Assembly: GCA_044450965.1 (NCBI GenBank)
Contig: JBIOJO010000012.1
Span: 3,040-67,039 of the forward strand
Direction: 5' to 3'
Origin: Elusimicrobiota bacterium
GTDB lineage: Bacteria > Elusimicrobiota > Elusimicrobia > UBA1565 > UBA9628
Length of the DNA stretch: 64,000 nucleotides
Positions 5,226 to 55,285 of this stretch are shown here, piece by piece (the stretch's first letter is position 1; each line of letters starts with the position of its first letter). Position numbers and translations under genes: made by a program. The notes beneath the pieces were generated by a model. That model had not been told where the DNA came from, did not search any database, and saw only the letters and a program-made list of their open reading frames with translations.

Positions 5226-5279
5226 TCGAACCGGGAGCGGCGGCGTGCCGGGTTTAAACGCCCCCGGCAATATGACAGA

Positions 5280-9457: not shown

Positions 9458-9477
9458 ATCAACATCAAGGAGTCGTC

Positions 9478-10359: not shown

Positions 10360-10399
10360 ACATGATGAACAAGGTTTTCACCGGTCCGTGGGAGAACGT

Positions 10400-16180: not shown

Positions 16181-16218
16181 AGAGATATTGATCTAAGAGC
16201 GTTGACTTCGTGTTTACG

Positions 16219-34516: not shown

Positions 34517-34774
34517 ATGAAGAAGCTTCTGATTGCCGTCGCGCTGTCCTCTTTCGCCGCCGTCGCGTTCGCCCAGGCCCCGACTCCCGCCGCCACTCCG
34601 GCCGCCGCGCCGGTCGCCGAGAAGAAGGCCGAGAAGAAGGCCGAGAAGAAGGCCGAGAAGAAGGCCGAGAAGAAGGCCAAGAAGGCCGCGCACCACAAGG
34701 CCAAGAAGGCCGAGAAGAAGGCCGATGAGAAGAAGGCCGACGCCGCTCCCGCCGTCGCTCCGGCCGCGAAGTAA
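34517..34774 (+). CDS. small secreted Lys/Ala/Glu-rich repeat protein (AEKK tandem repeats)
   Basis: RBS AAGGAG. Signal peptide MKKLLIAVALSSFAAVAFAQA. Five tandem AEKK units encoded by a 12-bp DNA tandem repeat gccgagaagaag (34616-34675). Followed by a strong intrinsic terminator. Confidence 0.7.
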   Translation: MKKLLIAVALSSFAAVAFAQAPTPAATPAAAPVAEKKAEKKAEKKAEKKAEKKAKKAAHHKAKKAEKKADEKKADAAPAVAPAAK

Positions 34775-34794
34775 TTCGCACCGGACACTGATTC

Positions 34795-34830
34795 GGCCCC
34801 CGCGCGCAAGCGCGGGGGCCGTCTCTTTTT
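34795..34830 (+). terminator. Rho-independent terminator
   Basis: GC-rich stem ggcccccgcgcg-caa-gcgcgggggcc followed by tctcttttt. Confidence 0.85.
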
Positions 34831-34994: not shown

Positions 34995-35162
34995 ATGCCG
35001 ATGATCGCGAAGGACCTGATGCCGTGGATGTTCGTGAAAAGGACCGCGACCTGGACGCCGTACGCGAAGATCCGCTCGGAGGCCGTCCGCTCCGAGCCCG
35101 CGGCGTTGCTGGAGAAGTCCGCGCGCAAGCCCGGGAGGCGCCCGCCCCGTGGGCCGGCTTGA
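34995..35162 (+). CDS. possible small ORF (55 aa) upstream of and overlapping the hspR-like start
   Basis: ATG CCG ATG ATC GCG AAG GAC CTG ... TGA. Nearly every third codon position is G/C, as expected for genuine coding sequence in this genome. It lies just downstream of the promoter. Not on the ORF track, presumably under its length cut-off. Confidence 0.3.
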   Translation: MPMIAKDLMPWMFVKRTATWTPYAKIRSEAVRSEPAALLEKSARKPGRRPPRGPA

Positions 35163-35421
35163 CCGACCCGTCCGCCGGACGCGCGCGACCCCGATCTACA
35201 CGATCGGGGCGGCGGCGCGCTTGACCGGAATCCCGATCTGGACCTTGCGCTGGATCGAGAAGCACGGCCTCCTCAGCCCCAACCGCACTCCCGGACGGCA
35301 GCGCCTGTATTCCGACGTCGAGATGGAACTGCTCCGCGAGATCCGCGGCTGGATGGAGCAGAAAGTGAACCTCGCCGGCATCCGCGTGATCCTGCGGCTG
35401 CGCCCTTCCGCCGCGCGCTGA
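35149..35421 (+). CDS. hspR: MerR-family HTH regulator, HspR-like
   Basis: PIYTIGAAARLTGIPIWTLRWIEKHGLLSPNRTPGRQRLYSDVEMELLREIRGWMEQKVNLAGIRVILRL parallels HspR (Y.I..AA.L.G....TLR.Y...GL..P.RT.G..R.YS..D...L..I.......VNLAG...I..L). GTG start. Confidence 0.7.
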   Translation: MGRLDRPVRRTRATPIYTIGAAARLTGIPIWTLRWIEKHGLLSPNRTPGRQRLYSDVEMELLREIRGWMEQKVNLAGIRVILRLRPSAAR

Positions 35422-35495
35422 CGCGCGCCTCCCGCCCCGAAGGACCCCCCGGCGCGTAGGTCCTCTTCCTATGGTTTTTTGGGACCTTAGTTCCT

Positions 35496-35524
35496 GTTGA
35501 TCTAAATCAACTGATGTCTATAAT
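35496..35524 (+). promoter_or_regulatory. promoter (TTGATC-16-TATAAT) overlapped by inverted repeat GTTGAT-ctaa-ATCAAC
   Basis: Palindrome at 35496-35511 overlaps the -35 element. TATAAT at 35519-35524. Located 70 nt upstream of the giant ORF's ATG at 35593. Confidence 0.5.
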
Positions 35525-35592
35525 GCCGCCACCTTCTAAAGGAAGGCGCCGTGGCCGCACGTCGTGGTGGCATTTACGGGAGACAACAAGAG

Positions 35593-38500
35593 ATGACTTC
35601 GATTCGATTCACTCGCAACGTGAAATCCGCGATCGCCTCAGCCGTCAGCCTGTCCCTGTTCTTGAGTTCCGCCGGTTGGCCCGCGTCGCGGGCGTTCGCC
35701 CAGGCCGTCAGCGCGGCGCGCGCCGTCGAAGGAGCTTCTCCCGTCCTGGCGCTTCCGGTCTCCGCCGCGTCCTCCCTGTCACCGATCTCTCCGCTGTCCG
35801 CGGGCGCCGCGTCGTTGAATTCCGCTCCGCCCGCGGCCTCCGCGCCGTCCTTCCGGAGCGCCTCTTCCGCGTTCGCTCCGGCGCGCGCCGCCGTTCCCGC
35901 GGCCTTGCCCAGCGCGGCACCCGCGCTTCACGCGGCTCCCGCCGCGGCGGACAAGGCGAAGCCGTCCGCGCCCGCGCCGTCCGAGCCCGCCGCGGCGCCG
36001 TCCGCCCCGCAGAGCGAGGGCGGCCCCCGCTGGGTGGAATCCGACGGCGCCGAGAAGCCCGTCAAGTCGGACGAGTCCGGGCCGCGCTGGGTGAAGACCG
36101 GGATGAAGGCCTGGATCGGCCGGCAGCTCTCCCGCTGGACGAAGGCCGACGCGGCCGTGTCGCGCAAGGAATTCGACGGGGACCGCGCTCATGACCACGC
36201 CGCGCAGGACGCGCCGGCGGCCGTCGCGGGCGCCGAATCCTCCTCCGCCTCGGGATTGTCCAAGGGCGACGAGGCCTCCCGCATCATCAACGACGTCTCG
36301 ATTCCGACCCCCGAGGCCGCGCGCCGCGTCGGCGAGCTCCGCCACGAGCACGGGACCCCGCTGTGGGCGAAGGTCGTGGCGCCTCTGTCGGTGATCGCGG
36401 CGGGCGTCGTGGCGTTCCACTTCGGCGCCGTCGGCGTCCTGACCTTGGGCGCGGGCTTGGTGGTGTCGGTCCTCGCCCACGAAGTCGCGCATCTGGCCGT
36501 CCTCAAGGCGCTGGGAGACCACACGGCGGAACACGCCGGCTCCCACAGCCTGAACCCGTTTCACCACGTGGACGCGGTCAAGACCGTGATCCTGCCGGCG
36601 CTGTCGCTGGCGATCTCCAGCGCGCTGCTCCCGTTCCCGATCCTGCTGGGCTCCGGAAAGGCCGTGGACGCGGACTTCAACAACCTGCGGGGCCCGCTGG
36701 GCGGACCGCGCTCGGCGCGCAACGCGTTCTGGGTGGCGGCGGCCGGTCCGCTGACGAACTTCGCGATCGCCGGTCTCGCCCTGGGCGCGGCCGCGCTTCT
36801 TCCGGCCGGAGGCCTGCTGGCGGGCGTGGCGATCGGCCTGGCGCACATGAATCTCGCGCTCGGCGTGTTCAACCTCCTGCCTTTGCCTCAGCTGGACGGC
36901 GGCAAGATGCTGGCCAGCGCGCTCCCCGAGGGCCTGTACGCGAAATGGGTGTACAACCCCAACGTGGAGAAGGGCTATCAGGGCCTGTTCCGCCGGCTGT
37001 ACGAAGGTCCGACGAACCTGCTCACCTTCATCGCCGACAAGCTGGGCGTGAAGAGCCAGAAAGGGCTGAACCTGGTCGCCAACGGCGTGACCTTCGCGGC
37101 GCTGGCGGCGTTCTACGCGGTGGCGTACGTCCATTTCGCGGTCGCGGTCCCGCTGCTGTTCCTGGCGCTGCCGTGCACGTACGACTACTGGTGCATCCGC
37201 GAGAAGGTCCGCTCCGAGGCGGCCGTGAAGGACGTCATGGACATCTTCAGCGTCTGGAGCTCTGTCATCGCCCAGATCGCCGAGGACCACGGGATGGCGA
37301 GCGAGGTCAGCCTGTTCGAGACCGAGCACGCGATGAAGAACGCCCTCGAGACCCTCATCGACGAGATGATGGCGAAAGAGGACTTCCGCGCGATGTCCGA
37401 CGAGGAGAAGATGGCCGCGGTCATGGCCGCGTATCCCGACAAGGCCGCCGACTTCCTGAAGGACAAGGTCTTCACCGAGGGCGCCGACACCAAGGAGAAG
37501 ATCCTGGAGGTCCTCCGCGACCCGCGCAACGGCCCGTTCTACGACCGCCTCAAGAAGTGGTTCGGCGACCACGACATCTTCAAGCGCTGGGACAACCCGA
37601 AGTACGAGGGCAAGCTCCGCGACCAGATGAAGGACGCCGACAAGCCGAAGTCCCGCGGCCAGGGCGGCTCCACGACCTTCGGCATGCTGGGCTTCCTGGC
37701 GCTGGTCGGCGGGGGAACCTTGCTGCTCGGCGCTCACGCGCCGGCGCTGGCGGGGGGCCTGGGCCTTCTCGGCCTGATGGGCACTTTGTCCGCGACGGGT
37801 TCGCCGCGCGCGTCGAAGTTCCAGCCGCGTCCCGGCGACGAGAGCAGCAACCTGCGCGTGCGCTTCGCGGAAGGCACGACGCCGGAGCAGGCGCGCGAGG
37901 TTCTGCGCGCGTACGACGGCGCGGTGCAGGAGGACACGGGCAATCTGGTGGTGTTCCACGTTCCGGCCGCCAACCCCGCGGCCGCGGTCATGATCGCCCG
38001 CGCGCTCGTCGAGTCCGAGCGCGTCGAGATCATTTCCGCTTCCAGCGCGGTCTACCCTTTGCTGAACGCCGGGGCGGAGGAGTCCGCCCAGCTTCCGCTC
38101 CCGCTTCCCTCGGCGCAGGGCGACGGCGATCCCCGCGCCGCCTCGGAGACGTCCGACGTCCCGTCCCCGACGTTCTCTCGCCCGATCCCCCGCGAGTGGC
38201 ACGAGAAGCTGCGCACCTCGCGCGGCCACCTGCACACGCGCGTGACGGTGCTTTTCAAGCCGGGCACGCCCGTGGGCATCGCGAAGGAGGTCCTCCGCGC
38301 CTACGAGACCAAGACGCCTTTCGGCGGTCCCTCTCACGTCGTGTTCCGCGTGGACGCCGGCAACCAGGTGGAGGCCGCCGCGATCGCCTCGGAGCTGGCC
38401 AAGAACGAGAAGGTAGCCACCGTCTCGGTCACCGGGGCCGTCTATCATCGCCTGACCGGCCATAACGAGCCCGCCGAGCCGTCCGCCTCGTCCGAGCCGA

Positions 38501-41500
38501 CGACCCCCGCCGAACCCGCCCGGACCGAGACGCCCGCCGAGCCCGCCGCTCCCGAGGCCGCCGCTTCGGCGCCGCAGCCGACCGAGGCCGAGCAGGCCGC
38601 CGCGCACGAGGCCGCCGTGGAGGCCGAGGCGCGCGCCCAGGACGCCGGCGACGGCCGAGCGAAGATCGGAGTCCGCGAAGGGGCCGCCGAAGGCGTCGCC
38701 GGCGCCGACCTCGGCGACCGCGACATCCTCGTCGAGCTCGCCGCCAGTCTTTCCGACGAGGTTCGCGAACGGATCCGCTCGGATATATCCGCGATGAGTC
38801 CCGTCACCCGCGCCAGCATCCGCGAGGACGGCATCCTGTCGTTGGGCCTGCGCTTCGACGTGGACGACGCCGTCGAGGTGGCCAAGGAGATCGCCAAGCT
38901 CAAGGCGGTCAAGTCCGTCACGACGTCCTTGGCCGTCCGCGACCGCATGATGGCCGTGTCCCTGCCCGCGAAGATCGCGTCGCACGGCAAGGAGCATTGG
39001 AGCACGAGCGCCGTCCTGGTCGGCTTCGCCGCGGACACCCCTCGCGTCGAGATCGAGAAGATCTTCAAGGCCCAGGGCCAGAATCATCTGTTCCGGCACG
39101 GGGACCTTTATGTCCTGAGCCTGCGCGACGCGAAGAAGGCCGCCGAGGCGGCCAAGGAGCTGGCCGGGGACGCGGCCGTCGTTTCCGTCGAGGTCCACCC
39201 GAACGTGGGCGCGGCGCTGGAGAACCGTCTGACCCAGCCTTACCCGAAGGCGGAGAGCTACGACCCGTCCCAAGCCGTCCTGATCCAGTTCAAGCCGGGA
39301 ACCACCGAAGCGGAAATGAAGGATTACGCCGAGCTCCGGAAGATGAAGCTGATCTACCCCAAGTTCCGCGGCATGGAGAACCTGGCTCTGGCCGAAGTCC
39401 TGTTCGGCGGCGACGCCGCGCTCACCCGGCAGATGCTGACCGACGAGACCCTCGACGAGGGCTCCAAGGTCGCGGAGGTCAAGCCGTTCAAGGAGCAGCC
39501 CGGCGAGGCGCCGTTGGCGCCGTCCGCCGCCGCCGTCGCGCGGGCCGAGGCCCGCAAGGCCGCGCTGGCCGCCGCCGAGGAAGCCAAGCGCCACGTGCCG
39601 CGCCGCGACGTCTCGGCGGAGTGGCTGAACTTCCTCCAGACGCGCAAGCTCAACGACGGCACCACCCTCAACGACAAGCAGGTCCAGGCGCTGGCGGAGT
39701 TCCTGAAGCCCGTCGCGAAAGGCCCGGGAGAGGCGCGCCCGCCCGTGGTCGCGCGCACCGAGGAAGTGAAGCGGATGCTGCCGATCGTGACGTCTCCGCG
39801 CGGCATGCGCAACAGCGTGATCCTGGTCGGCGGCGCCGGCACCGGCAAGACCGCGGTCGCCGAAGGCCTGGCCGAGATGATCGAGGACGCCGAGCACGCG
39901 TCCGCCAACGACGGAGACCAGTTCCTGCAGTTCCAGCGCCTGAAGGGACGCTGGCTGGTGGAGCTGGACATCAACAAGGTCCTGTCCGCCGAGGATCCGA
40001 TCAAGGTCCTGAACGCGGTGCTGGACATCCTGCCGCGCTTCAACGACCCGAACCCGGGCCGCGGCAACGAGGTCATCGTCCTGATGGACGAGATCCAAAA
40101 GTTCTTCCTGGACAACCAGGGGCAGAAGATCGCCAACATCCTGAAGGGCCCGCTGCGCGACGGCAAGATTTCCGTGATCGCGACGACGACGGACACCGAG
40201 TACAAGAAGTTCATCGAGTCCGACGACGCGTTCCGCCGCCGCCTGGAGAAGATCGACGTCGCCGAGCCGAACGTGGCGCAGACCACGCGCATCCTGCGCG
40301 CCATGAAGGGCTGGCTGACGAAGATCCACGACGCGGTGGTCCCCGACGAGGCGCTGGTGGCGGCCGCCAAGCTGACCGACCAGTTCGACAAGACGAACTT
40401 CAATCCGGACAAGTCCATCAAGGCCGTGCAGGACGGCGCCGAGCTGTCGCGCCCCGAGAACCTGCGCGCGGCCGTCACCTTGGACATTCGCGAGACTTGG
40501 AACGACCTGACGGTCGCCGTCAACGAGGCGCGCCAGGCCCTCCTCGACAAGGGCATCGCGTCGACGTTGGCTTTGCCCATCGAGGCGTACAACAAGATCG
40601 CCGACCTCATCAAGAAGGCCGAGGCGCTTTACGCCGAGCGCGAGGCGATCGCCGACGGCCAGGGCCGCCTGACCGTGGACGTGGTCAAGCGCGTGATCGC
40701 CCAGAAGACGGGCATCGCCTCCGGCCAGCTGAACATGGGAGAGGAGGACGCCTCCCGCTACAACGACATGGAGAAGACCATCGGCGCGCGCGTGATCAAC
40801 CAGGATCCCGCCCTGACGGCCATCGCCAACGCGATCCGGCGCAATAAGGCCGGCCTCTCCAACCCGAACCGGCCCATGGGCAAGTTCCTGCTCACCGGCC
40901 CCACCGGCGTCGGCAAGACGTATCTGGCCAAGGAGCTGGCGCGTTTCCTGTTCAACGACCCCGAGGCCATGATCCGCATGGACATGTCCGAGTACATGGA
41001 AGAGCACACCGCTCAGCGCCTGACCGGCTCGCCGCCCGGCTACGTCGGCTACGGCGAGGGCGGACAGCTCACCGAGGCCGTGCGCAAGAAGCCCTACTCC
41101 GTGATCCTGTTCGACGAGGTCGAGAAGGCGCATCCGAAGGTGTTCGACGTGCTGCTCCAGATCCTGGACGACGGCCGCCTCACCGACGGCCAGGGCCGCA
41201 CGATCGACTTCAAGAACACCGTCATCCTGATGACCTCGAACGCGGGCATGGGCTCCGTGGACGGCGAGAAGTACGCCAAGCTGCTCGACGCGATCGAGGA
41301 GCACAACGCCGCGGTCGAGGAAAAGACCGCCCAGCGCCAGGCCGTCGAGAAGGCCTGGGACGACGAGATCGACGCGGCCGTCGCGGAGCACCTGAAGGCC
41401 AGCTTCCGCCCCGAGTTCCTGAACCGGCTGGACGAGGACCCGCGCTCCAAGAACAAATGGATCCGCGTCAACCGCCTGCGCGCGCAGGACACGGCCAAGA

Positions 41501-43977
41501 TCGCGAAGATCCAGGTCGGGGAGTTCGCGCACCTGTTGGCCGACCGCCACGACACGGACCTGGTGGTGGACCCGTCGGTGATCGAGTTCCTGGCGAAGGA
41601 GGGCTTCTCGCACCTGTACGGCGCGCGTCCCATGACGGCGGCCATCGAGAAGCACATCGTGGACCCCATGGCGAAGTGGATTCTTGAGGAAGCCGCGAAC
41701 GGCCACAACAACGTGCGCGGCGGCCTGATCACGGTCTCCTACGACGGACAGAAGATCGTCTTCAAGGCGGAGGTCAAGCCCGCGAAGGACATCCAGCGCG
41801 CGTCGCTGAAGGACGCGTCGGCCTCGATGGCCGCCGAGGTGTTCACCTTGATCGAGGGACTGGTCGGCGAGGGCGGCGGCGAGGAGCCGTCGGAGGGCCT
41901 GTTCGACCGGCTGCTGCGTTCGTCCCGTCCCGCGCCCGCGTCGCAGGCGAAGGTCGAGACGGCGCCGGCCGTTCGGGCGTTCTTCGCGCCGGATTCGTCC
42001 TTGGCCATGCCGGACGGCGCGCGCGCCGTCGCGGCGCTGCACAACCGCGCGAAGGGCGCCGACGCGGCGGCCCGGGCGGAGATCAAGGCCGTGACCGAGG
42101 CCGTCGCGGCCGCGGGCTGGTCCGACGCCGTCGCGGGGGCGCTGTCCTCGCCCGCGGGTCAGCCCGGCGAGGGCTGGCTGAAGCAGATCGTGGCGTTCGC
42201 CAAGGACCGCGCCGAGAAGGCGGCGGTGGAAAAGCCCATCGAGATCGTCAGCGCGGTGGACGCGGACCGCGTGCGCGTGCTGATCCACTCGGACGCGGAG
42301 CTCTCCGACGCCGACAAGGCTTATCTGGCCGCTCACTTCACCGGCGCGGCGCCGGCCTCCTACGAGGCCGCCCAGCAGATCGTCGACAACCTCAACCTCA
42401 ACGGCGGCATGACGCGCAACCACAACCTGCTGGACCTGTACCGCCGCCTGAAGGACATCCCGGGCGCGCGCATGGGCTACGCCGTCGGCGCGTCCGCGCG
42501 CGGCGGCAAGGGCTCGGACCTGTGGCTGGACATCCGCAAGGAAGAGCCGAAGCCCGAGGCCGACCGCGCCATAGGGCGCGGAAGCGCCGCTTCCTCCGAT
42601 TCCGTCAGCAAGGCGGCTACGCCGCATCAGGAGCGGGAGATGGCCAAGACCCGCGATCTGATGATGCGCTTCATCGACCAGTCCCGCTTCAAGTCGGAGG
42701 CGGACCAGGACGGGACCGCCATCCGCGTCGCGGCGGCGGAGAGCTACGCGCGCCTGGCGACGCCGGCCGACCTGGAGGTCGCCCGCGCCTGGATCGCCGA
42801 GAACGAGTGGGCCGCTCCGGGAAAGGCGCAGTTGGCCCTGACGTCCAAGAACGCCTGGGTGATGACGACCGCGTTGATCCTGAAGCGCTTCGGCGGAACC
42901 GAGGACATCGCCCGCCTCGAAACCATGTCGGCCAACGTCAGCGATTACTCGCACTATCAGGTCCCGATGCACAACGCCTTGGTGGACGCGCTGGCCGTGC
43001 TGTACGCGCAGGCGGGGCTTTCGGCGGTCCGCGAGGCGGCCGTCCGCGTCGCTCAGAACAAGCCGGGCAACGACAAGGACATCAAGCGGGCCGTCGCCCG
43101 CGCGCTGGGGCATTTGGGCTACCCCGCCGACCTGGAAGCGGTCAAGGCCGACGGCGACGGAGTCACCGCGCTGTACCGGCGCATGGGCAAGGGCGACGAG
43201 CTGCGCGCCGAGTTCTACGACGACGCCGTCTGGAACAAGATCGACGGCGAGCGCAAGATCGCCGTCCTGGCCCTGGTCGGGGAGCAGGCCGAGCCGACCG
43301 ATCAGACGTTCGCGCTTCTGGCCGCGGTCCTGCGCGGAAGCCGCGCCGGCGACCGCGTCGTGCGCTATCAGGCGGCCCAGGCGTGGGCGAATTTGACGGC
43401 CGCGACGGGCCGCACGCGCGGCCTGGGAGAGGCGATCTCCGGATACTTTAAAACCAACGGCATCGGCCAGTACAACGATCCGTGGGCCGTGCTTTACGCC
43501 TACGTCCTGGCGGCGGAGCAGGCGGGGGGGGCGGACGCCCTGCCCGCGCTGGAAGCCATCATGAACGTCGACCCGGGCCCCTACAACGCGGTCAACAGCA
43601 ATCACGAGCAGATGTACTTCTCGACCCCCGAGGCCTGGGCGAAGACCCTGATCCGCAGCGGGAAATTCGCCGAGTACGCCCGGCCGGCGCTGGGTCCCGA
43701 CGGGGCGCCGCTTCCGTCCCGCCTGCAGCAGATGCTGCTCGAGAAGAACCATCCGATGATGGTGGCGGCCGCCCTGCGCGCGATCGGTTTGGCGCGCGAT
43801 CCGTCCGTCAAGGGAAAGACCGGCGCGGACGGCGCGGCGGTCCCCGCGATCGACCACGCCGCCCCTCCCGCGTCGGGCGGTTCCGGGGGCTACCACGGCG
43901 GCTATCCCGACTACGCTTACGGTCAGCGCCACAGCTACCTGATGCGCCGCTGGGAGCGCGACCTGCCGCCGATGTAG
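35593..43977 (+). CDS. giant multidomain protein: N-terminal signal/TM + Ala/Pro-rich linker + M50 (site-2 protease) membrane metallopeptidase domain + ClpB/ClpA-like double AAA+ (D1, middle, D2, D2-small) + C-terminal HEAT/PBS-lyase-like repeats
   Basis: M50 signatures: HEVAHLAV (nt about 36478) and FNLLPLPQLDGGKM within multi-TM segments. AAA+ D1 Walker A VILVGGAGTGKTAVAEGLAEMI (about 39830), Walker B VIVLMDEIQKF. LPDK-like NPDKSIKAV. D2 Walker A LLTGPTGVGKTYLAKELA (about 40900). The D2 stretch MDMSEYMEEHTAQRLTGSPPGYVGYGEGGQLTEAVRKKPYSVILFDEVEKAHPKVFDVLLQILDDGRLTDGQGRTIDFKNTVILMTSN is near-canonical ClpB. FLNRLDE in the D2-small domain. C-terminal repeats of the ...AVRVAQNKPGNDKDIKRAVARALGHLGYPADLEA... 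type. The ORF opens at a GTG at 35551; ATG 35593 with a GGGAGA RBS is preferred. Confidence 0.8.
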   Translation: MTSIRFTRNVKSAIASAVSLSLFLSSAGWPASRAFAQAVSAARAVEGASPVLALPVSAASSLSPISPLSAGAASLNSAPPAASAPSFRSASSAFAPARAAVPAALPSAAPALHAAPAAADKAKPSAPAPSEPAAAPSAPQSEGGPRWVESDGAEKPVKSDESGPRWVKTGMKAWIGRQLSRWTKADAAVSRKEFDGDRAHDHAAQDAPAAVAGAESSSASGLSKGDEASRIINDVSIPTPEAARRVGELRHEHGTPLWAKVVAPLSVIAAGVVAFHFGAVGVLTLGAGLVVSVLAHEVAHLAVLKALGDHTAEHAGSHSLNPFHHVDAVKTVILPALSLAISSALLPFPILLGSGKAVDADFNNLRGPLGGPRSARNAFWVAAAGPLTNFAIAGLALGAAALLPAGGLLAGVAIGLAHMNLALGVFNLLPLPQLDGGKMLASALPEGLYAKWVYNPNVEKGYQGLFRRLYEGPTNLLTFIADKLGVKSQKGLNLVANGVTFAALAAFYAVAYVHFAVAVPLLFLALPCTYDYWCIREKVRSEAAVKDVMDIFSVWSSVIAQIAEDHGMASEVSLFETEHAMKNALETLIDEMMAKEDFRAMSDEEKMAAVMAAYPDKAADFLKDKVFTEGADTKEKILEVLRDPRNGPFYDRLKKWFGDHDIFKRWDNPKYEGKLRDQMKDADKPKSRGQGGSTTFGMLGFLALVGGGTLLLGAHAPALAGGLGLLGLMGTLSATGSPRASKFQPRPGDESSNLRVRFAEGTTPEQAREVLRAYDGAVQEDTGNLVVFHVPAANPAAAVMIARALVESERVEIISASSAVYPLLNAGAEESAQLPLPLPSAQGDGDPRAASETSDVPSPTFSRPIPREWHEKLRTSRGHLHTRVTVLFKPGTPVGIAKEVLRAYETKTPFGGPSHVVFRVDAGNQVEAAAIASELAKNEKVATVSVTGAVYHRLTGHNEPAEPSASSEPTTPAEPARTETPAEPAAPEAAASAPQPTEAEQAAAHEAAVEAEARAQDAGDGRAKIGVREGAAEGVAGADLGDRDILVELAASLSDEVRERIRSDISAMSPVTRASIREDGILSLGLRFDVDDAVEVAKEIAKLKAVKSVTTSLAVRDRMMAVSLPAKIASHGKEHWSTSAVLVGFAADTPRVEIEKIFKAQGQNHLFRHGDLYVLSLRDAKKAAEAAKELAGDAAVVSVEVHPNVGAALENRLTQPYPKAESYDPSQAVLIQFKPGTTEAEMKDYAELRKMKLIYPKFRGMENLALAEVLFGGDAALTRQMLTDETLDEGSKVAEVKPFKEQPGEAPLAPSAAAVARAEARKAALAAAEEAKRHVPRRDVSAEWLNFLQTRKLNDGTTLNDKQVQALAEFLKPVAKGPGEARPPVVARTEEVKRMLPIVTSPRGMRNSVILVGGAGTGKTAVAEGLAEMIEDAEHASANDGDQFLQFQRLKGRWLVELDINKVLSAEDPIKVLNAVLDILPRFNDPNPGRGNEVIVLMDEIQKFFLDNQGQKIANILKGPLRDGKISVIATTTDTEYKKFIESDDAFRRRLEKIDVAEPNVAQTTRILRAMKGWLTKIHDAVVPDEALVAAAKLTDQFDKTNFNPDKSIKAVQDGAELSRPENLRAAVTLDIRETWNDLTVAVNEARQALLDKGIASTLALPIEAYNKIADLIKKAEALYAEREAIADGQGRLTVDVVKRVIAQKTGIASGQLNMGEEDASRYNDMEKTIGARVINQDPALTAIANAIRRNKAGLSNPNRPMGKFLLTGPTGVGKTYLAKELARFLFNDPEAMIRMDMSEYMEEHTAQRLTGSPPGYVGYGEGGQLTEAVRKKPYSVILFDEVEKAHPKVFDVLLQILDDGRLTDGQGRTIDFKNTVILMTSNAGMGSVDGEKYAKLLDAIEEHNAAVEEKTAQRQAVEKAWDDEIDAAVAEHLKASFRPEFLNRLDEDPRSKNKWIRVNRLRAQDTAKIAKIQVGEFAHLLADRHDTDLVVDPSVIEFLAKEGFSHLYGARPMTAAIEKHIVDPMAKWILEEAANGHNNVRGGLITVSYDGQKIVFKAEVKPAKDIQRASLKDASASMAAEVFTLIEGLVGEGGGEEPSEGLFDRLLRSSRPAPASQAKVETAPAVRAFFAPDSSLAMPDGARAVAALHNRAKGADAAARAEIKAVTEAVAAAGWSDAVAGALSSPAGQPGEGWLKQIVAFAKDRAEKAAVEKPIEIVSAVDADRVRVLIHSDAELSDADKAYLAAHFTGAAPASYEAAQQIVDNLNLNGGMTRNHNLLDLYRRLKDIPGARMGYAVGASARGGKGSDLWLDIRKEEPKPEADRAIGRGSAASSDSVSKAATPHQEREMAKTRDLMMRFIDQSRFKSEADQDGTAIRVAAAESYARLATPADLEVARAWIAENEWAAPGKAQLALTSKNAWVMTTALILKRFGGTEDIARLETMSANVSDYSHYQVPMHNALVDALAVLYAQAGLSAVREAAVRVAQNKPGNDKDIKRAVARALGHLGYPADLEAVKADGDGVTALYRRMGKGDELRAEFYDDAVWNKIDGERKIAVLALVGEQAEPTDQTFALLAAVLRGSRAGDRVVRYQAAQAWANLTAATGRTRGLGEAISGYFKTNGIGQYNDPWAVLYAYVLAAEQAGGADALPALEAIMNVDPGPYNAVNSNHEQMYFSTPEAWAKTLIRSGKFAEYARPALGPDGAPLPSRLQQMLLEKNHPMMVAAALRAIGLARDPSVKGKTGADGAAVPAIDHAAPPASGGSGGYHGGYPDYAYGQRHSYLMRRWERDLPPM

Positions 43978-48562: not shown

Positions 48563-51346
48563 ATGAAGCTGATCGCCCTTCTCTCCGCCCTGGTTCTCTG
48601 CGCCGCGTCGGCGCGTCCCGCCTCCGCCGCCGATCCGGTGGTCCGCCTGCAGAAGCTGGCGGCCAAGGTCCGCGCGCTCAAGGGCTCGGTCACGATCAAG
48701 CCCAGCAAGAAGGCCGCGGCCCGCGCCGCAGGCGCGAAGTCCGCGAAGGCGGGCAAGATCCCGGCTTCGAACAAGGCGACGAAGGCCACGGCCCTGCGCT
48801 CGCTGTACCGCCAGCTGGCCGTGCGCGATCTGCGTTCGTGCCTGTCTTCCTCGCTTCCCAAGGCCGGCGTCGCGCGGGTGAAGTCCTCCCTGCGTAGCCT
48901 GCGCGTGGCCGGCGAACGCCTCGCAGACGACGAGGCGACGACCGCCTTTCCCGACGCCGATCTGGACAACGACTCCGATTTGGCCGACGCCTGCGGCTGC
49001 GGAACCGGCATGGCGCCGCTGGGCGAGGACTCCTACGGCCTGTGCTACTGCGCCGACTCGGCCGACGCGTCCTTCGCCGCCGCGGCCGCCGACTCGGACG
49101 ATTCGTCCACGGACGTGGCCGTCTCCAGCGTCGCCGTTTCGACGTCGGCCGTTCCCGCCGCGTCGGCGGATCCCATCTTCTCGACCGTGCAGTTCGCGCG
49201 GCTGTCCCACGCCGCCCGCGCCGCGACGAAGGCCCTCTCATCCCGCGAGACGCCGAAGGCCGTCGCCGGCGCCAAGGTCAGCGCTCAAGCCCGGCTGCAT
49301 TTCTCGCGCGCGATGACCTACCAGCGCATGGCCGCCGCGGCCACGCGTCCCCTGTTCCCGTCCAAGGCGCCGACTTCCGCCGCGTTGAAGGGCCTGGCCC
49401 GGACTTTGCGGGCCGGACGCGGCCCGATCGCCGTGTCGCGGCCCTTGGCCGGGGGCGGCTACCGCTCGGTCATGATCCCGCGCAGCCTGGCGCTGAAAAA
49501 GACTTACCGGGCCATGGCGGCGTTGGACTACCGCGCGGCGTTGGTCGCGGGCCTGCCGGCGGCGAAGGCGGGCAAGGCCGAGATGGGCATCTTCCGGATC
49601 GCGGCGTCGGCGTCCGGGGTGCGGCGCAAGGCGAAAAAATCCGCCCGCAAGGCCGGCGTGAAAATCGCCGACGACGACGGGGAGGATGACGGCGGTGGCG
49701 ACGTTTCCTATTCCGCGCCGGACGACCCGGGCTACGGCGACGTGAGCCAGAGCGACTCCAGCGGCTACGATTCCAGCGCCGGCGATGATTCCACCGCCGC
49801 CCTCGCGCCGGACGACTCCGGCTCCCCCGACGATTCCAGCGCTACGGACGCGGTTGCTTACCAGGGCGCGGACGACACCAGCGTGTCCGCCGACGACAAC
49901 GAAGGGGGGGACTCCTCCGGCGGCGACTCCGCACCGACTTGGAGCAATGACGCGACGGACGACTCCGGTTACGCCGGGCAGAACATCGTCCCGTTGACGC
50001 CTTTCGACAACACGCCCTTGGTGGATCCGGGCAGCGACGATCCCGCGCCGAGCGGCGACGCCAGCCAGTTTGCCGACACGTGGGGCGCGACGTCCGATTC
50101 GCTCACCGACGCGCTGGTCTCCGGTCCCGACGTGACGGCCTCCACGGACGACGGGACGGCGCCCTCCGATGACGGCACCGCGACGGCGACTGACGGCACG
50201 GCGAGTGCCGATGACGGCGCCGCCGCGACGGCGGACTCCGGCGACGATGCGACGTCCCAGGAACCGGTCGTCACTTTGGACGACGGAACGGGCGACGGCG
50301 GGTCCGCGGCGGTCACTGACGGGACGGCCGCTCCGGCGACGCCGGACGCGTCCGTATCCACTGATGGGACTGCGGCTCCGGATCCTCTGGACGGCGGTTC
50401 GTGCCAGCCGGATTCCACGACTCTCTCTCACTACAAGGGCGGGAAGAAGGCCGGAATCGTGGACTGGTGCAAACAGAAGCTGAACCAAGGGGTGAATTAC
50501 GTTCTCAATGTGTTGAATTCGCCCGCGGGCCAGGTTCCCGCCTGGTCGACCCCAGCTCCTGACCCGGTGTTACCCGCCCAGGCGCCGGGACAGAGCGATG
50601 ATGATTACTTCGCGCAGCATAAGAATGACATCTGTGTTTCACATGGACTCGTGGGCGGAACGTTGAACTGTCCGAAGAATTGGACCCCGATCGGGACGAG
50701 TTGCTGGTTGGAGACGAAAGAGTATAAATGCGCCGATTTGACGCTTAGAGGTCGAGTTCGGAACATCGCTCAAGCGTGCCCGGCGAGCAGCAAGGCCATC
50801 GCCGGCGGTAAGAAGTCCGGCTTCGTGATGTGCGCGGTCCAGCGTAAGTCTTCGAAAGCGGCGGGCCCGATCAAGGGCAATCGCTTGTACAGCCATCTGG
50901 CTAAGCTGGAGAAGGCGGCGAACCGCTACTCGAAAATCGTCAGCGCGAAGGCGGCCAAGCCCGCGCGCAAGTCCGCGGCGCTTTTCGCACGGGCTCAGGC
51001 GTACGAGAAGATGGCGGCGGCCATCCCAGTGCGCGGCCGTAAGTCCGCGCGCAAGAGCGCGAAGGCCAACGCGCCTCCTCAGGCCAAGAAGGCCGAGGCC
51101 AGGAAAGCGGCCGTTCCGAAGGCGGCGGTGAAGAAAGCCGTGGTCGCGGAGGACGTCGCGCCGGCTCCCGGTCCGGACGCGGCGGTCTCTCCCGACTCCG
51201 CGGCGACGCCGGATGTCGCGCCCGCTCCCGACAATTCTCCTGCGGCCGACCCGATCAAAGCCGCCGAGCAGGAGATGAACGACCAGGAAAAGGACATGGA
51301 CCAGGAGATCCAGAAACGGCTTCCGCCGACGCCCGCGGGGAAGTAG
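48563..51346 (+). CDS. secreted 927-aa low-complexity protein (Ala/Lys-rich ends, acidic Asp/Ser/Gly-rich core, Cys-rich module)
   Basis: Signal peptide LIALLSALVLCAASARPASA. Long acidic stretch DDSGYDSSAGDDS.... Cys-rich segment CQPDS...CKQK...CVSHG...CPKNW...CWLETKEYKCADL...CPASS...MCAV. Lys/Ala-rich C-terminus. Confidence 0.55.
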   Translation: MKLIALLSALVLCAASARPASAADPVVRLQKLAAKVRALKGSVTIKPSKKAAARAAGAKSAKAGKIPASNKATKATALRSLYRQLAVRDLRSCLSSSLPKAGVARVKSSLRSLRVAGERLADDEATTAFPDADLDNDSDLADACGCGTGMAPLGEDSYGLCYCADSADASFAAAAADSDDSSTDVAVSSVAVSTSAVPAASADPIFSTVQFARLSHAARAATKALSSRETPKAVAGAKVSAQARLHFSRAMTYQRMAAAATRPLFPSKAPTSAALKGLARTLRAGRGPIAVSRPLAGGGYRSVMIPRSLALKKTYRAMAALDYRAALVAGLPAAKAGKAEMGIFRIAASASGVRRKAKKSARKAGVKIADDDGEDDGGGDVSYSAPDDPGYGDVSQSDSSGYDSSAGDDSTAALAPDDSGSPDDSSATDAVAYQGADDTSVSADDNEGGDSSGGDSAPTWSNDATDDSGYAGQNIVPLTPFDNTPLVDPGSDDPAPSGDASQFADTWGATSDSLTDALVSGPDVTASTDDGTAPSDDGTATATDGTASADDGAAATADSGDDATSQEPVVTLDDGTGDGGSAAVTDGTAAPATPDASVSTDGTAAPDPLDGGSCQPDSTTLSHYKGGKKAGIVDWCKQKLNQGVNYVLNVLNSPAGQVPAWSTPAPDPVLPAQAPGQSDDDYFAQHKNDICVSHGLVGGTLNCPKNWTPIGTSCWLETKEYKCADLTLRGRVRNIAQACPASSKAIAGGKKSGFVMCAVQRKSSKAAGPIKGNRLYSHLAKLEKAANRYSKIVSAKAAKPARKSAALFARAQAYEKMAAAIPVRGRKSARKSAKANAPPQAKKAEARKAAVPKAAVKKAVVAEDVAPAPGPDAAVSPDSAATPDVAPAPDNSPAADPIKAAEQEMNDQEKDMDQEIQKRLPPTPAGK

Positions 51347-52828: not shown

Positions 52829-55285
52829 TCAGCGCGGAGACGTCACGGGAGCGATCGCCGGACCGTGGGCTTCCGCGGCGGCGCGGATCAGGGCCTCGTG
52901 CGGGATGGTCCCGTCCGTCTTCATGTCGCTGATCAGCACGTGCAGCATGGCCGTGGGGACGTCCTGCGGCTGGCTGTACAGGGTCGTCGGGACGACCAGC
53001 AAGGCCGCGTAGGCGGCGCCGGCGGCCTCGCCCAGGGCCGAGACCAGGGCCTGCCGCACGGTCCAGGTGAAGCCCATGTAGGCCTCGCCCTGGGCGTGCG
53101 GGTCGGGGTTCTGCGGATCGAACTGTGTGGTGTTTTCGCCGGTGCGGATCAGGTTCGGCTTGCCGGCCGGGGGCGTGACGAAGAAGCCCTCGCCTATCAG
53201 GGGGTTGCCGCGGATGAACATGGAGACCGTGTCGGCGATGGCCTCGTTGACGCCGGAGTTCATCACCGGCTCCATGACGAAGCGCACGAAGCGGTAGGCG
53301 GCGTCGGCCGACTGCTCGGCGGTGAGCGCGATCTGCGACAGGATCTGCACCGCGCGGTGCGTGCTCTCGTGGTAGATGATCGAGGGCTGGGCGGTGTTCT
53401 CGAACGACATCGTGTGCGGGCGGCCCAGCTTGTCCTTGAAGGTCACCGTCGCGGCGGCCTGCAGGTTCAGGCTGTCGTCGGCCGGGCTGTAGTACGCGTT
53501 GCCGGGCATGTCGTGCTTGTTGGCCTTCACGCCGCCGCCCAACGGCGCCAGGATGCGCTCGTCGGTCACGCCCGCGGAGTTCTTGAGCCAGTCCACCTGC
53601 TTGGAGTAGTAGATGTAGCCGTTCACTTCGGCTTCCAGCTCCGGATTGGAGCCGTCGGGATTCAAGGTCGCTTTCACGGCCTGGCCCGGCGTGGCGGTCA
53701 AGGTGACGGACACGTCTCCGTTCTTCGCCGCGTCGGCGTCGGTGGTGTCGGCGTAGCGTCCGTTGAGCTTGATCGTGAGCTGGACCGGCCCGGAGGCCGA
53801 GCCCGGAACCGTGAAAGTTCCGTCGGCCGCCGTCGTGGCCACGACCTTGCCCGACGCGTCGTACACGTTGGCGAAGGGCAGCGGCAGCGCCGTGGTCGGC
53901 CCGTGGTCGCTCCCGGTCGTGTTCAAATCGGTGCCGCGCGCCATGGCCGCGCCGCCGATGCCCGAGGCGATGGGGCCGCCGTCGCGCAGGAGCTGCTGGG
54001 CGCTCCACGCGAAGGCCTCGCCGCTCTTCACGTCCACGGCGACGATCACGGGACGGCCTTCAAGATCGGCGGCCTCGTAGACGTTCATCGCGCGCCACGC
54101 GCCGTTCATCTGGGTGATGGTGCGCGTCAGGAACTGGGGCGGCTGCGCGGAGGGGACGGTCTTCTTGGCGCCTTGGACGACGCGCTCCCAAATGCGCGAC
54201 AGGAACTTGCGCAGGGCGCTGGGCGCCGCGTCCGGGGGCGACTGCATGCGCTTGGCGGCGATGGCCTGCATCTGTCCGTCATCGTAGTTGACCGTCAGGA
54301 TATCGGAGGAGATGCCCGGGTAGAGGCGGCCTTCGGTGGCCATGACGGTGGGCTTGCCGTCGGAGAAGACCTTCAGCACGAAGGTCAGGCTGCCGCCGTC
54401 CACCAGCAGATAGTAAGGAGAGCCGTCCTTTTCCGTGCCCTTCTTCCACTGCCGGAAAATCGCGTAGTACGTGTCGGCCTGGCCCTGGGACTTGTCGCCG
54501 GGCACGAACTGGACGTGGACCTTCGCCATGTCGGAGCTGGCCGCGCCGTACTTGGCCGGATCGGAGTCCACCAGCGCGCGCAGCGCCGCTTCGACCGCGG
54601 CGGGATCGGACGCGTTCGCGTTCAGCTTGATGGGAGATGCGCCGTTGGGCAGCTTCTGAGAAGGCGAGGTGTGGAAATCATTGACGCGGACCGAGCCCGC
54701 GTCGCTGGGGCGGGGCTTGGCGTCGAGGCGCACGCCCGGCTGAAGCCGGTGCTCGGCCTGCGGCGCGGTGAGAATGCCTCGGGCGTAGGCGGGCGCGCTC
54801 TCCGGAGCGCGCTCCAGGCCGCCGTCGAAGAAGCGCTCGATCGAGCGGGCGAATCCGGAGGTGACGGCCTGCGCCAGCTGTCCGACGATGGTGCGCGGTG
54901 ACGAATCGGACTTCGCGGCCGGAGCGGCGGAGGTCCGAGCGGGCGCGACCGCCGCGGCGAGCGGCGCCGGAGCGGGGAGAGCGGTCAGAGCGGGGGCGAG
55001 CGCGGCGGCGGGAGCGGCGACGGGCGCCGCGGACACGACGCCGGGAGCGGCGGCGGGGGCCAGCGCGGCCGCGGAAAGGGAGAACGAGGGCGCGGTCAGC
55101 GCCGCGGGGGCCGAGCCGAGCGCGGCGGGAACCGTTCCCATCGCGGAGGGGACGGTCCGCGGAGCGGCCTCGACGAATTGTGCCCGCGCGGGCGCCGCTC
55201 CGAGGAAGGAACTCAGAAGGATCAGCGGCGACAACAACATGGATACGACCTTCTTCGTCGCGCGCGGGCGCAGGAGGTGGCTCAT
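52829..55285 (-). CDS. secreted HExxH zinc metalloprotease-like protein (818 aa)
   Basis: Signal peptide MLLSPLILLSSFLGAAPARA. Ala/Pro-rich linker. Catalytic-looking IIYHESTHRAVQIL with a downstream Glu-containing helix (EAIADTV). Confidence 0.6.
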   Translation of the reverse strand: MSHLLRPRATKKVVSMLLSPLILLSSFLGAAPARAQFVEAAPRTVPSAMGTVPAALGSAPAALTAPSFSLSAAALAPAAAPGVVSAAPVAAPAAALAPALTALPAPAPLAAAVAPARTSAAPAAKSDSSPRTIVGQLAQAVTSGFARSIERFFDGGLERAPESAPAYARGILTAPQAEHRLQPGVRLDAKPRPSDAGSVRVNDFHTSPSQKLPNGASPIKLNANASDPAAVEAALRALVDSDPAKYGAASSDMAKVHVQFVPGDKSQGQADTYYAIFRQWKKGTEKDGSPYYLLVDGGSLTFVLKVFSDGKPTVMATEGRLYPGISSDILTVNYDDGQMQAIAAKRMQSPPDAAPSALRKFLSRIWERVVQGAKKTVPSAQPPQFLTRTITQMNGAWRAMNVYEAADLEGRPVIVAVDVKSGEAFAWSAQQLLRDGGPIASGIGGAAMARGTDLNTTGSDHGPTTALPLPFANVYDASGKVVATTAADGTFTVPGSASGPVQLTIKLNGRYADTTDADAAKNGDVSVTLTATPGQAVKATLNPDGSNPELEAEVNGYIYYSKQVDWLKNSAGVTDERILAPLGGGVKANKHDMPGNAYYSPADDSLNLQAAATVTFKDKLGRPHTMSFENTAQPSIIYHESTHRAVQILSQIALTAEQSADAAYRFVRFVMEPVMNSGVNEAIADTVSMFIRGNPLIGEGFFVTPPAGKPNLIRTGENTTQFDPQNPDPHAQGEAYMGFTWTVRQALVSALGEAAGAAYAALLVVPTTLYSQPQDVPTAMLHVLISDMKTDGTIPHEALIRAAAEAHGPAIAPVTSPR

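Follow-up and report, generated by a model that had tools for sequence, protein, structure and literature searches.

A giant gene of uncultured Elusimicrobiota joins a predicted site-2 intramembrane protease to a double-AAA+ Hsp100 module in one polypeptide

In a 64,000-nucleotide stretch of the genome of an Elusimicrobiota bacterium (GenBank assembly GCA_044450965.1, contig JBIOJO010000012.1, positions 3,040 to 67,039 of the forward strand; hereafter, the window), we identified a giant gene that encodes a predicted site-2 protease (S2P) of the M50 type and, further along the same chain, a ClpB/ClpC-like Hsp100 module with two AAA+ domains, D1 and D2. The gene belongs to a family with one common domain order, and every genome locus at which we found this family lies in Elusimicrobiota. 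Full-text searches of the literature, which covered a preprint on giant bacterial genes, gave no description of an S2P–Hsp100 fusion; within the literature covered, this agrees with a preliminary description of the window, made from the sequence alone, which had not recognized the architecture as described. The parts of the gene are listed below; amino acid (aa) positions throughout are those of a 2808-aa frame counted from a GTG at 35551.

35593..43977, + strand: whole giant gene, 2794 aa from the ATG
35593..35700, + strand: Sec-type signal peptide, aa 15-50, with a basic n-region, an h-region of ~16 aa and an AFA/QA site
35701..36306, + strand: low-complexity tail rich in Ala, Pro and Ser, aa 51-252, with conserved GPRWV (twice) and FDG motifs
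36361..37209, + strand: M50/S2P membrane core, aa 271-553, with six helices (TMa-TMg) and a probable re-entrant segment
37216..37638, + strand: helical domain "HEL", aa 556-696, all-helical, predicted local distance difference test score (pLDDT) 94-98
37663..37785, + strand: hydrophobic segment rich in Gly, Ala and Leu, aa 705-745, poorly conserved, pLDDT <50
37819..39486, + strand: five ferredoxin-like repeats, aa ~757-845, 882-969, 1035-1134, 1142-1223 and 1242-1312
39733..40470, + strand: D1 AAA+ module, with Walker A GGAGTGKT, Walker B DE, RRR Arg fingers and AAA_lid_9
40447..40581, + strand: M-domain-like insert of ~45 aa, compared with ~100 in ClpB; a ClpC-like length
40858..41706, + strand: D2 module and D2-small, with Walker A/B, GYVGY pore loop, sensor-1 N, FRPEFLNR Arg finger and GARP sensor-2
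41980..42537, + strand: alpha/beta domain "CAB", aa 2144-2329, predicted GHKL/Bergerat fold
42622..43797, + strand: alpha-solenoid "SOL", aa 2358-2749, best matched by Rpn2/PSMD1, Rpn1/PSMD2 and APC1, then by ARM/HEAT proteins

The stop-to-stop open reading frame (ORF) occupies 35551..43977 on the + strand without interruption. The ATG at 35593 is probably the start of the gene, because a GGGAGA Shine-Dalgarno sequence lies ~9 nt upstream and the consensus N-terminus of the family is "MT..R"; a ACGGGAGA element also precedes the called starts in two related loci. The identical protein in the NCBI database (P0001) was called with 2785 aa and is annotated "MAG: AAA family ATPase [Elusimicrobiota bacterium]." In each block of 200 codons, the GC content was 0.84-0.97 at third positions (GC3) and 0.36-0.69 at second positions, and given this uniformity, the gene looks coding from end to end. 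The claim of one uninterrupted frame in the preliminary description was thus borne out, and all the motifs named there were found in the order given (HEVAH, NLLPLPQLDGG, then the D1 and D2 blocks). Antisense to the gene is a 2717-aa ORF, a shadow such as long genes usually have in a genome of 68% GC. Pfam assigned AAA_2 (8e-64), ClpB_D2-small (7e-16) and AAA_lid_9 (1e-05) to the protein; Peptidase_M50 (PF02163) scored marginally above its cutoff (28.4 bits vs 27.2, covering only the LDG stretch), and HEAT_2 scored below its own. There were no above-threshold Pfam or NCBIfam matches in the N-terminal tail, HEL, the repeat region or the C-terminal 748 aa. HEL, the five ferredoxin-like repeats and the GHKL-fold domain are parts that the preliminary description had missed.

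With the whole protein as query, 41 relatives of full or nearly full length were found (34-100% identity, 1763-3346 aa), and those with a named source all came from metagenome-assembled genomes of Elusimicrobiota. PF02163 and Hsp100-type matches were present in all 41, with AAA_2 and D2-small in 40; the truncated P0036 had AAA_lid_9 only. In public databases, the family stands under generic names ("AAA family ATPase," "ClpC," "hypothetical protein"). When one genome per GTDB species was scanned with a profile of residues 500-700, 51 loci were obtained, all in Elusimicrobiota and including the complete 3.8-Mb chromosome CP096137.1 and a 3.1-Mb contig with two diverged paralogs. The domain order across these loci was read by tblastn with eight domain segments of the giant protein. 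The order M50, HEL, repeats (optional), D1, D2, CAB, SOL was identical in all loci, and nearly all of the sufficiently long ones carried it in a single frame; frame changes occurred only in L018, L030 and L051, two of which lie on megabase-scale contigs. The divergence of the M50, D2 and C-terminal segments increases jointly, clade by clade, as would be expected for an old and stable fusion. Identity to the query was ~0.77 in M50 and HEL and ~0.8 in the AAA+ modules, with a minimum in the N-terminal tail and the repeat spacer. Conservation extends to HExxH, LDG, both Walker A/B pairs, the Arg fingers, the D2 pore loop and sensor-2. The covalent fusion of M50 and Hsp100 proposed in the preliminary description therefore recurs, with the same collinear order, in about 41 protein clusters and 51 species-level genomes, which were assembled independently, and judging from these comparisons, the architecture is real and under purifying selection. 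As far as searched, the family is confined to uncultured Elusimicrobiota; the word-indexed protein search is biased by low-complexity words and, with the giant protein as query, omitted even ordinary ClpB, and analogous fusions may exist elsewhere.

Orthologs of the two halves also occur in split form within Elusimicrobiota, at locus L004, where two genes overlap by 4 nt (GTGA). Their positions within that locus are as follows.

3096-5066: gene 1, 656 aa, with signal peptide, low-complexity tail, M50 core and HEL
5063-12805: gene 2, 2580 aa, in a different frame

Gene 1 ends just short of the hydrophobic hairpin, and gene 2 starts with a signal peptide, low-complexity tail and hydrophobic segment of its own, followed by the repeats, D1, D2 and the C-terminal domains. 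Because of this extra N-terminal module on gene 2, we consider L004 a genuine two-gene architecture and not a sequencing frameshift, and the apparent translational coupling of its genes supports a functional link between protease and ATPase. The existence of the split version and the frame changes in L018, L030 and L051 could be taken to mean that the giant gene is itself an artefact, that is, a chimeric assembly or a read-through uniting two separate genes. However, dozens of assemblies made independently in different studies, one of them a complete genome, show the collinear single-frame architecture; GC3 stays uniform over the whole ORF; and the signal peptide and low-complexity N-terminus added to gene 2 of L004 mark a real alternative architecture. 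The collinear relatives, the 51 loci and the uniform coding statistics rule out misassembly and read-through, and we put the chance of such an artefact at practically nil.

Two further observations concern the copies within the family. The copy in L005 (P0036, 2422-7758) is cut short after D1; the locus contains neither D2 nor the C-terminal domains, an unrelated gene comes next, and the copy is probably a decayed gene. Paralog pairs were found within one genome in three cases (L018 and L051, both on contig CBDIQC010000001.1; L017 and L052; L026 and L048). Such pairs consist of a main-clade copy with repeats and a MerR neighbour and a distant-clade copy without repeats, and several distant-clade paralogs also have no hydrophobic hairpin. 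Such diverged pairs suggest that the cell has two machines, each specialised.

In the membrane core, the HEVAH motif (aa 310-314, nt 36478-36492) lies inside the helix 294-320, and the LDG of NLLPLPQLDGG (aa 441-451, nt 36871-36903) follows the helix 422-441 in the AlphaFold2 model. HExxH was present in every aligned member of the family, the sole gapped row being a 5'-truncated fragment. LDG is kept in 40 of the 41 members and replaced by ADG in one; the split version has NDG, in which the Asp is retained. The PF02163 scores of paralogs were 31.4-36.8 bits. The AlphaFold2 model (63-sequence alignment, mean pLDDT 79.8) has core helices at 271-290, 294-320, 342-359, 389-416, 422-441, 503-528 and 532-553. 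In a Foldseek comparison of this core with mjS2P (3b4r, 218 residues), 268 columns were aligned with a probability of 1.00 and a template-modelling (TM) score of 0.50 on the target, at an E value of only 3e-3. The model thus superposes on the whole of mjS2P, and its predicted fold is that of the S2P core. Among stand-alone proteins, those most closely related are of ~250 aa, named "Zn-dependent protease / site-2 protease family," with 34-43% identity over the core only. We regard the M50 domain, intact by catalytic motif, as a predicted intramembrane protease.

The HEL domain that follows is as conserved as the catalytic core. Pfam and NCBIfam scans of HEL were empty, and a PDB fold match was absent from the best 50 Foldseek matches. 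A near-invariant C542 and an invariant C548 (LPC-x5-C-IREK) stand at the cytoplasmic end of the last S2P helix, just before HEL, and a near-invariant E-x-EHAMKN motif lies inside HEL; the region holding both comprises aa 542-600, at ~37174-37350 of the window. The pattern of the Cys pair and E-x-EHAMKN suggests a second metal site or a redox switch beside the protease. In its position in the chain, HEL corresponds to the CBS domain of SpoIVFB, a substrate-binding cytoplasmic domain after the core (PMC9042235).

The Hsp100 module spans aa 1395-2055, and its best PDB sequence matches were ClpB (2e-110) and ClpC (2e-108). ClpC aligns in one continuous stretch and ClpB in two pieces, because ~100 M-domain residues of ClpB face ~45 here; the middle region of roughly 150 aa given in the preliminary description holds only this much M-domain-like insert in the PDB sequence alignment. 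Against Escherichia coli ClpB, D2 scored 280 bits with all functional elements, and D1 only 87 bits. The D1 Walker A motif GGAGTGKT is at aa 1427-1434 (nt 39829-39852) and the Walker B DE at aa 1513-1514, with an NPDK element; D2 has Walker A GPTGVGKT at aa 1783-1790 and DEVEKAH, and a family-specific insert, LDEDPRSKNKWIRVNR, follows its Arg finger. Across the family, D1 Walker A (GxxGxGKT) is found in all members, Walker B is DE in 39/41 and DD in 2/41, and RRR is kept; the D2 Walker A/B motifs, sensor-1 N, FRPEFLNR and GARP are found in essentially all members, and GYVGY is kept. Among the NCBIfam models, the module scored 471 bits with ClpB (TIGR03346; cutoff 1232), 402 with ClpB (NF008118; cutoff 1417), 390 with ClpA (TIGR02639; cutoff 993), 386 with ClpV (cutoff 885) and 347 with ClpG (cutoff 1900). 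By sequence, therefore, the module is a class-I Hsp100 by descent that stands outside every named subfamily.

The description of this module as near-canonical holds for both Walker pairs, the Arg fingers and the D2 motifs, with the D2 GYVGY pore loop, sensor-1 N and GARP all intact, but not for the pore loop of D1. There, the AGAKYRGEFEERL of ClpB is replaced in all 41 members by a short "S-A-E-D-P-I-K" turn with no aromatic residue; the pore-loop-1 Tyr (ClpB KYRGEFE) is deleted family-wide, and an aromatic pore-loop residue remains in D2 only. Because D1 lacks this Tyr throughout the family, D2 is likely the translocation motor by analogy with known Hsp100s, and D1 probably serves in nucleotide-dependent assembly or regulation. 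Clp_N (PF02861) was not found; the ferredoxin-like repeats precede D1 instead. No [LIV]-G-[FL] tripeptide for ClpP docking was found between sensor-1 and the Arg finger in any member: the LGM/VGM matches to this pattern are the TSN(L/V)GM sensor-1 stretch itself and not a docking loop, and the segment from sensor-1 to the Arg finger is a variable helical insert. Because this docking loop is absent, the M50 domain would be the only protease on board, and an M41/FtsH match was absent among the best 25 of 33 Pfam families and the best 25 of 35 NCBIfam families. The statement in the preliminary description that ClpB and ClpA are soluble needs qualification for Hsp100s at large, in that membrane assemblies exist: PTEX HSP101 (structures 6e10 and 6e11), which sits on a membrane pore, is among the PDB sequence matches of the module.

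The membrane topology of the window protein can be read in part from its distant relatives. P0039 and four or more further loci of the distant clade have a linker of 86-95 residues between HEL and D1, and as read from the P0039 sequence, this linker is polar and has no hydrophobic segment. The ATPase must be cytoplasmic, and because HEL joins D1 without a membrane pass in P0039-type members, HEL and the C-terminal end of the S2P core are cytoplasmic. Therefore, segment 705-745 of the window protein, which is the second hydrophobic cluster noted in the preliminary description, must be a hairpin or a re-entrant element, and an optional one, because it is absent in some paralogs (P0039). In the canonical S2P orientation (RseP, mjS2P, SpoIVFB), the zinc site points towards the cytoplasm. 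A cytoplasmic HEL agrees with this orientation and with the Lys/Arg bias of the loops, in which we counted ~21 such residues on the cytoplasmic side vs 0 in the three short loops of the opposite side. An inverted S2P, with zinc site and HEL in the periplasm, is ruled out by the HEL-AAA+ junction that has no membrane pass in several members. A seven-pass model, in which 342-359 is counted as a pass, fits the signal peptide and the Lys/Arg bias, but it would place HExxH and LDG on opposite faces and was rejected on the geometry of RseP and mjS2P.

Between the hydrophobic segment and D1 lie the ferredoxin-like repeats, the units of which were delimited from the AlphaFold2 model and aligned with hand-set boundaries. 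Each has the order beta-alpha-beta-beta-alpha-beta with high pLDDT, and Foldseek matched them to tandem RRM-type ferredoxin-like domains. A BLAST self-comparison of the repeat region gave no significant internal matches; our impression is that the sequence pattern recalls subtilisin pro-domains. The repeat number varies from 0 to many across the family, and the distance from LDG to the D1 Walker A ranges from ~330 residues in the repeat-less distant clade to ~1600 in P0030.

The C-terminal part, described earlier as about 900 aa of linker and HEAT/PBS-lyase-like repeats, is ~750 aa long and consists of a linker, a GHKL-fold domain and an alpha-solenoid (AlphaFold2 model of the C-terminal 749 residues, mean pLDDT 84.8). 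The alpha-solenoid itself stands; its assignment to HEAT/PBS-lyase does not, since Pfam HEAT_2 (PF13646) scored 17.5 bits on SOL, below the cutoff of 27.7, and the best structural matches are of the Rpn1/Rpn2-like PC-repeat type (Foldseek, Rpn2/PSMD1 first, probability 1.0, E 0.03 or worse). The model of CAB has the Bergerat fold, and this predicted fold is closest to the anti-sigma kinases SpoIIAB and RsbW, a match at the fold level only (9-12% identity). The conserved columns of CAB are HF.G, LLDLYRRL, IPGA(R/K)MG and W-L; the N-box Asn, G1 (DxGxG) and G2 (GxxGxG) were not found among them, and a Pfam HATPase_c or HATPase_c_2 match was absent even at E <= 1. CAB is probably a nucleotide-free binding module. 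By tblastn, CAB was detected in all clades and SOL in only a few distant-clade loci. Residues 2060-2808, searched by phmmer among 1.84 billion cluster representatives, matched only 41 proteins, mostly at the C-terminal ends of long proteins or in short fragments. All of these appear to belong to the family, and with no relatives found outside it, these domains seem confined to it. A 4718-aa protein of Candidatus Omnitrophica (P0042) is another giant Hsp100 protein, with AAA_2, D2-small and a Pfam-detectable HATPase_c and without M50; Hsp100–GHKL fusions may be a wider theme in uncultured phyla.

Gene neighbourhoods were taken from the homologous loci, and the following features precede the giant gene in the window.

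34995..35162, + strand: conserved small ORF of 53-55 aa (MIAKDLMPWMFVKRTATWTPYAKIRSE...KPGRRPPRG), overlapping the start of the MerR gene
35149..35421, + strand: MerR-family regulator gene, 90 aa, Pfam MerR_1 5e-15
35497-35510: palindrome TTGAT-N4-ATCAA, overlapping the -35 element of the giant gene promoter
35497..35524, + strand: promoter-like TTGATC-N16-TATAAT, with its -35 within the palindrome

Of all NCBIfam models, HspR (NF047375) matched the MerR gene best, at 66.2 bits vs a cutoff of 105 and more than 20 bits above the next unrelated model. A strong TTGACA-N17-TATATA promoter precedes the small ORF and the MerR gene, and this pair is syntenic with the giant gene in ~20 main-clade loci (small-ORF counterparts at L001 9395-9556 and L005 1776-1937). 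The palindrome has one match in the 64-kb window vs 0.02 expected. It occurs exactly once in each of 17 loci (L001, L002, L005, L010, L012, L014, L019, L022, L023, L025, L027, L029, L033, L036, L039, L040 and L045), just upstream of the giant gene wherever the N-terminal tblastn match places the start; 4 of the 17 have no adjacent MerR gene. The palindrome is a likely operator, and its conserved, unique position at the promoter would place the giant gene under the control of a specific repressor or activator, our best guess being HspR-like, stress-linked control.

We also noted inverted repeats (AGGACC...GGTCCT...(T-run)...GGACCT) at 35441-35487, between the MerR gene and the giant gene. Similar ones lie upstream of the homologs in L001, L003, L004 and L005, and in L005 both arms co-vary (GGCCC/GGGCC). 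They could be a terminator, an alternative hairpin or a second protein-binding site. A search for a leader RNA element gave no Rfam match and a fold z-score of only -2.45. Farther upstream, 34517-34774 (+) encodes a secreted-looking 85-aa protein with a signal peptide, Lys-rich (A/E)KKA repeats and an AFAQA site like that of the giant protein; a GC-rich terminator hairpin follows at ~34793-34818. Its counterparts (L001 8904-9161; L005 1285-1545) are syntenic with the MerR gene and the giant gene.

The reading we prefer is that the giant protein would be a hexameric unfoldase tethered to the membrane, working together with its own intramembrane protease domains on substrates anchored in the membrane, under stress-responsive control, and as a whole we regard this as an even call. 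The N-terminal half would be a six-helix, zinc-dependent intramembrane protease of the S2P type with the conserved cytoplasmic HEL, from which the variable ferredoxin-like spacer leads into the ClpB/ClpC-like double AAA+ module. This module would hexamerise under the inner membrane with the entry face of D1 towards the membrane, gathering up to six protease domains above the pore. By the order of the chain, the membrane protease would be on the D1 entry side and CAB and SOL on the D2 exit side. D2, with all canonical motifs, would act as the threading motor, and D1 would bind and hydrolyse ATP, its substrate-gripping Tyr being lost, probably for assembly or regulation. The S2P would cut a transmembrane segment of a membrane-anchored protein near the cytoplasmic face, and the unfoldase would pull on, unfold or disaggregate the cytoplasmic part of the cut protein, while CAB and the Rpn1/2-like SOL at the D2 exit face may serve as platforms for binding partners or substrates. 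An HspR-like repressor may control expression via the promoter palindrome, which points to a role in proteotoxic or membrane stress. Of the new ATP-driven unfoldase–protease machine envisaged in the preliminary description, the fusion, the intact motifs and the lack of a ClpP loop stand; the joint action we infer, as we do the geometry of the hexamer, the coupling of the two activities, the substrate class and the induction by stress. A bolder form of the proposal, possible in our view and on balance doubtful, is that the family is an ATP-dependent class of intramembrane protease, unrecognised before, and a bacterial single-chain counterpart of the pairing of intramembrane proteases with p97/Cdc48 in endoplasmic-reticulum-associated degradation (ERAD). 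The Hsp100 motor would then extract or unfold membrane-anchored, possibly periplasm-exposed proteins, feeding or clearing the segments cut by six S2P domains.

A dedicated device for signalling by regulated intramembrane proteolysis would use the same parts for a narrower purpose. The S2P would cut one membrane-anchored regulator, for example of the anti-sigma type, the unfoldase would strip or unfold the fragment, doing the job of ClpXP after RseP, and CAB and SOL would hold the partner transcription factor. The order S2P-then-Clp is the established pathway for anti-sigma factors (PMC12203970), the chain order membrane-D1-D2 fits "cut first, then thread," CAB is kept in all clades, and two diverged paralogs per genome could serve two pathways. 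However, sigma factor, STAS and PP2C genes were not seen beside the gene in the five neighbourhoods with gene calls (L001/L002, L003, P0039, P0030 and L005) or among the scanned flanking genes of the window, CAB has no nucleotide motifs and matches at the fold level only, a fragment would not be degraded when there is no ClpP loop, and a hexameric machine of 2800-aa subunits is heavy for a single substrate. We consider such a device unlikely, though of the alternatives, it is the one we take most seriously.

Less probable still is a membrane-anchored disaggregase of the ClpG/ClpK type, in which the M50 domain would be mainly an anchor or would act only in cis, either by trimming its own signal peptide and tail or by freeing the chaperone through cleavage of the hairpin. 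Regulons of the clpB/dnaK type are typically under HspR-like control, the NCBIfam matches include ClpG and ClpK, the ClpP loop is absent, and each polypeptide, including those of both L004 genes, begins with a signal-peptide-like segment of a class that S2Ps such as RseP clear. Set against this, the M50 motifs and HEL match the ATPase in conservation, a level too high for a domain that does no more than anchor, and the aggregate-binding N-domains of ClpG and ClpB are missing. Moreover, P0039-type members have no hairpin, which rules out cis-cleavage of segment 705-745 as the general way of releasing the chaperone. The PTEX HSP101 matches (6e10 and 6e11), together with a signal peptide and an exported-looking tail that suggest contact with the periplasm, would also allow a PTEX-like translocation motor, in which the ring unfolds proteins and pushes them across the membrane while the M50 domains form or gate the conduit. 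We think this very improbable: the membrane domain precedes D1 in the chain, on the entry side, whereas PTEX has its pore at the exit side of D2; protein-conducting channels are not known among S2P folds; and the soluble CAB and SOL occupy the exit face.

Several observations weigh against the co-operating unfoldase–protease that we prefer. The signal peptide is conserved in all family members and in both L004 genes, whereas the low-complexity tail is, apart from its motifs, variable, and no further hydrophobic segment lies between the signal peptide and residue 271. A family-wide Sec signal peptide thus conflicts in parity with six passes, which imply a cytoplasmic residue before the core, and in this respect, the topology model is incomplete. 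One possibility is a periplasmic tail ahead of a non-canonical core, perhaps in an unprecedented membrane topology; another is that the signal-peptide segment acts on the protease in cis, as a substrate, pseudo-substrate or plug of the kind that BofA is for SpoIVFB. The spacer between HEL and D1 varies from ~80 aa in the repeat-less clade to ~700 aa here and well over 1000 aa in P0030, and so long and variable a distance between membrane and D1 speaks against a geometry as tight as that of FtsH. Without its pore loop, D1 could have an atypical, non-threading function, and the modelled RsbW/SpoIIAB-like fold of CAB hints at sigma-factor signalling over general quality control. As for regulation, the HspR assignment is a tentative one below the NCBIfam cutoff, the MerR pair was not detected beside the giant gene in most mid-clade or any distant-clade loci, and the palindrome is, we take it, not the classical HAIR (HspR-associated inverted repeat) sequence. 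Finally, a substrate shared by protease and unfoldase, and a role in quality control as opposed to signalling, are points that we infer only.

FtsH is the known system that comes closest in overall plan, with a membrane anchor, an AAA+ unfoldase and a zinc metalloprotease in one polypeptide; a hexameric ring under the inner membrane would likewise be expected of the giant protein, and involvement in the membrane-protein and stress response is likely. The two differ in that the single AAA ring of FtsH leads to a soluble M41 chamber at the exit face, whereas the giant protein has two Hsp100-type rings, an intramembrane M50 domain on the N-terminal entry side and, at the exit face, GHKL-like and solenoid domains and no protease. 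With ClpB, ClpC and ClpG it shares D1 and D2 with AAA_lid_9, AAA_2 and D2-small; its D2 is very close to that of ClpB, its M-domain has the length of that of ClpC, and the absence of a ClpP loop is shared with ClpB and ClpG. Unlike class-I Hsp100s, it has no Clp_N and no D1 pore-loop Tyr and adds the N-terminal membrane protease and the ~750 aa of C-terminal domains, and its M-domain is too short for the interplay of ClpB with DnaK. Group-III S2Ps (SpoIVFB, mjS2P) and small COG1994-type S2Ps have the same six-helix core with HExxH and NxxPxxxLDG, and SpoIVFB also has a soluble cytoplasmic domain after TM6; here, that domain is the family-specific HEL and not CBS, and a signal peptide, a low-complexity tail and an AAA+ machine are attached. 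A clip within the bilayer combined with ATP-driven extraction, unfolding or degradation is also the principle by which RseP acts with ClpXP, the YqgP rhomboid with FtsH (PMC7231995) and RHBDL4 with p97 (PMC9437926). In those pairings, the partners are separate proteins that work non-covalently or sequentially, whereas here they are fused or translationally coupled, and a downstream peptidase chamber is not evident in the giant protein. Rpn1 and Rpn2 resemble SOL as solenoid platforms attached to an AAA+ unfoldase; the likeness of CAB to SpoIIAB/RsbW and of SOL to Rpn1/Rpn2 is limited by the 9-12% identity, the lack of a Pfam match and of ATP-binding boxes in CAB, and the weak E values of SOL.

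The remaining genes around the giant gene encode a pseudouridine synthase, a thioredoxin-TPR protein, large NHL/Kelch/fn3 proteins and a FliG-like protein, and these flanking genes give no functional clue. Other very large ORFs in the window lie at 1363-4263, 10388-16180, 16210-21444, 48563-51346, 52829-55285 and 61386-63998, with good coding statistics; two of them have NHL/fn3 or Kelch/fn3 repeats, and four (818-1930 aa) have no Pfam match.

S2Ps are regarded as slow, ATP-independent enzymes, the substrates of which are pre-trimmed by another protease and the products of which are passed to separate Clp machines. The CBS domain of SpoIVFB reportedly binds ATP. The ATP independence of S2Ps stated in the preliminary description is therefore too general; S2Ps are not uniformly ATP-blind. 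Both enzyme superfamilies, the FtsH-type proteases and the pairing of intramembrane proteases with AAA+ partners were known already; what is new is the covalent joining of M50 to a two-ring Hsp100, with the protease on the entry side, the D1 pore loop lost, no peptidase at the exit and appendages that resemble a proteasome scaffold and an anti-sigma factor. If the proposed co-operation is true, a natural S2P–Hsp100 fusion would provide direct evidence from genomes that both steps belong to a single functional unit, and it would offer a compact single-gene system for cryo-electron microscopy and biochemistry of how unfolding force is coupled to intramembrane cleavage. It would be a third design of membrane-bound, ATP-dependent proteolytic machine, beside FtsH and the rhomboid/SPP enzymes that work with p97 or FtsH. 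The fusion also shows that in an Hsp100 ring, the D1 pore loop can be lost and appendages like the proteasome lid and anti-sigma factors acquired. The family is widespread and sometimes duplicated in Elusimicrobiota, and it is probably important for the envelope or stress biology of these bacteria.

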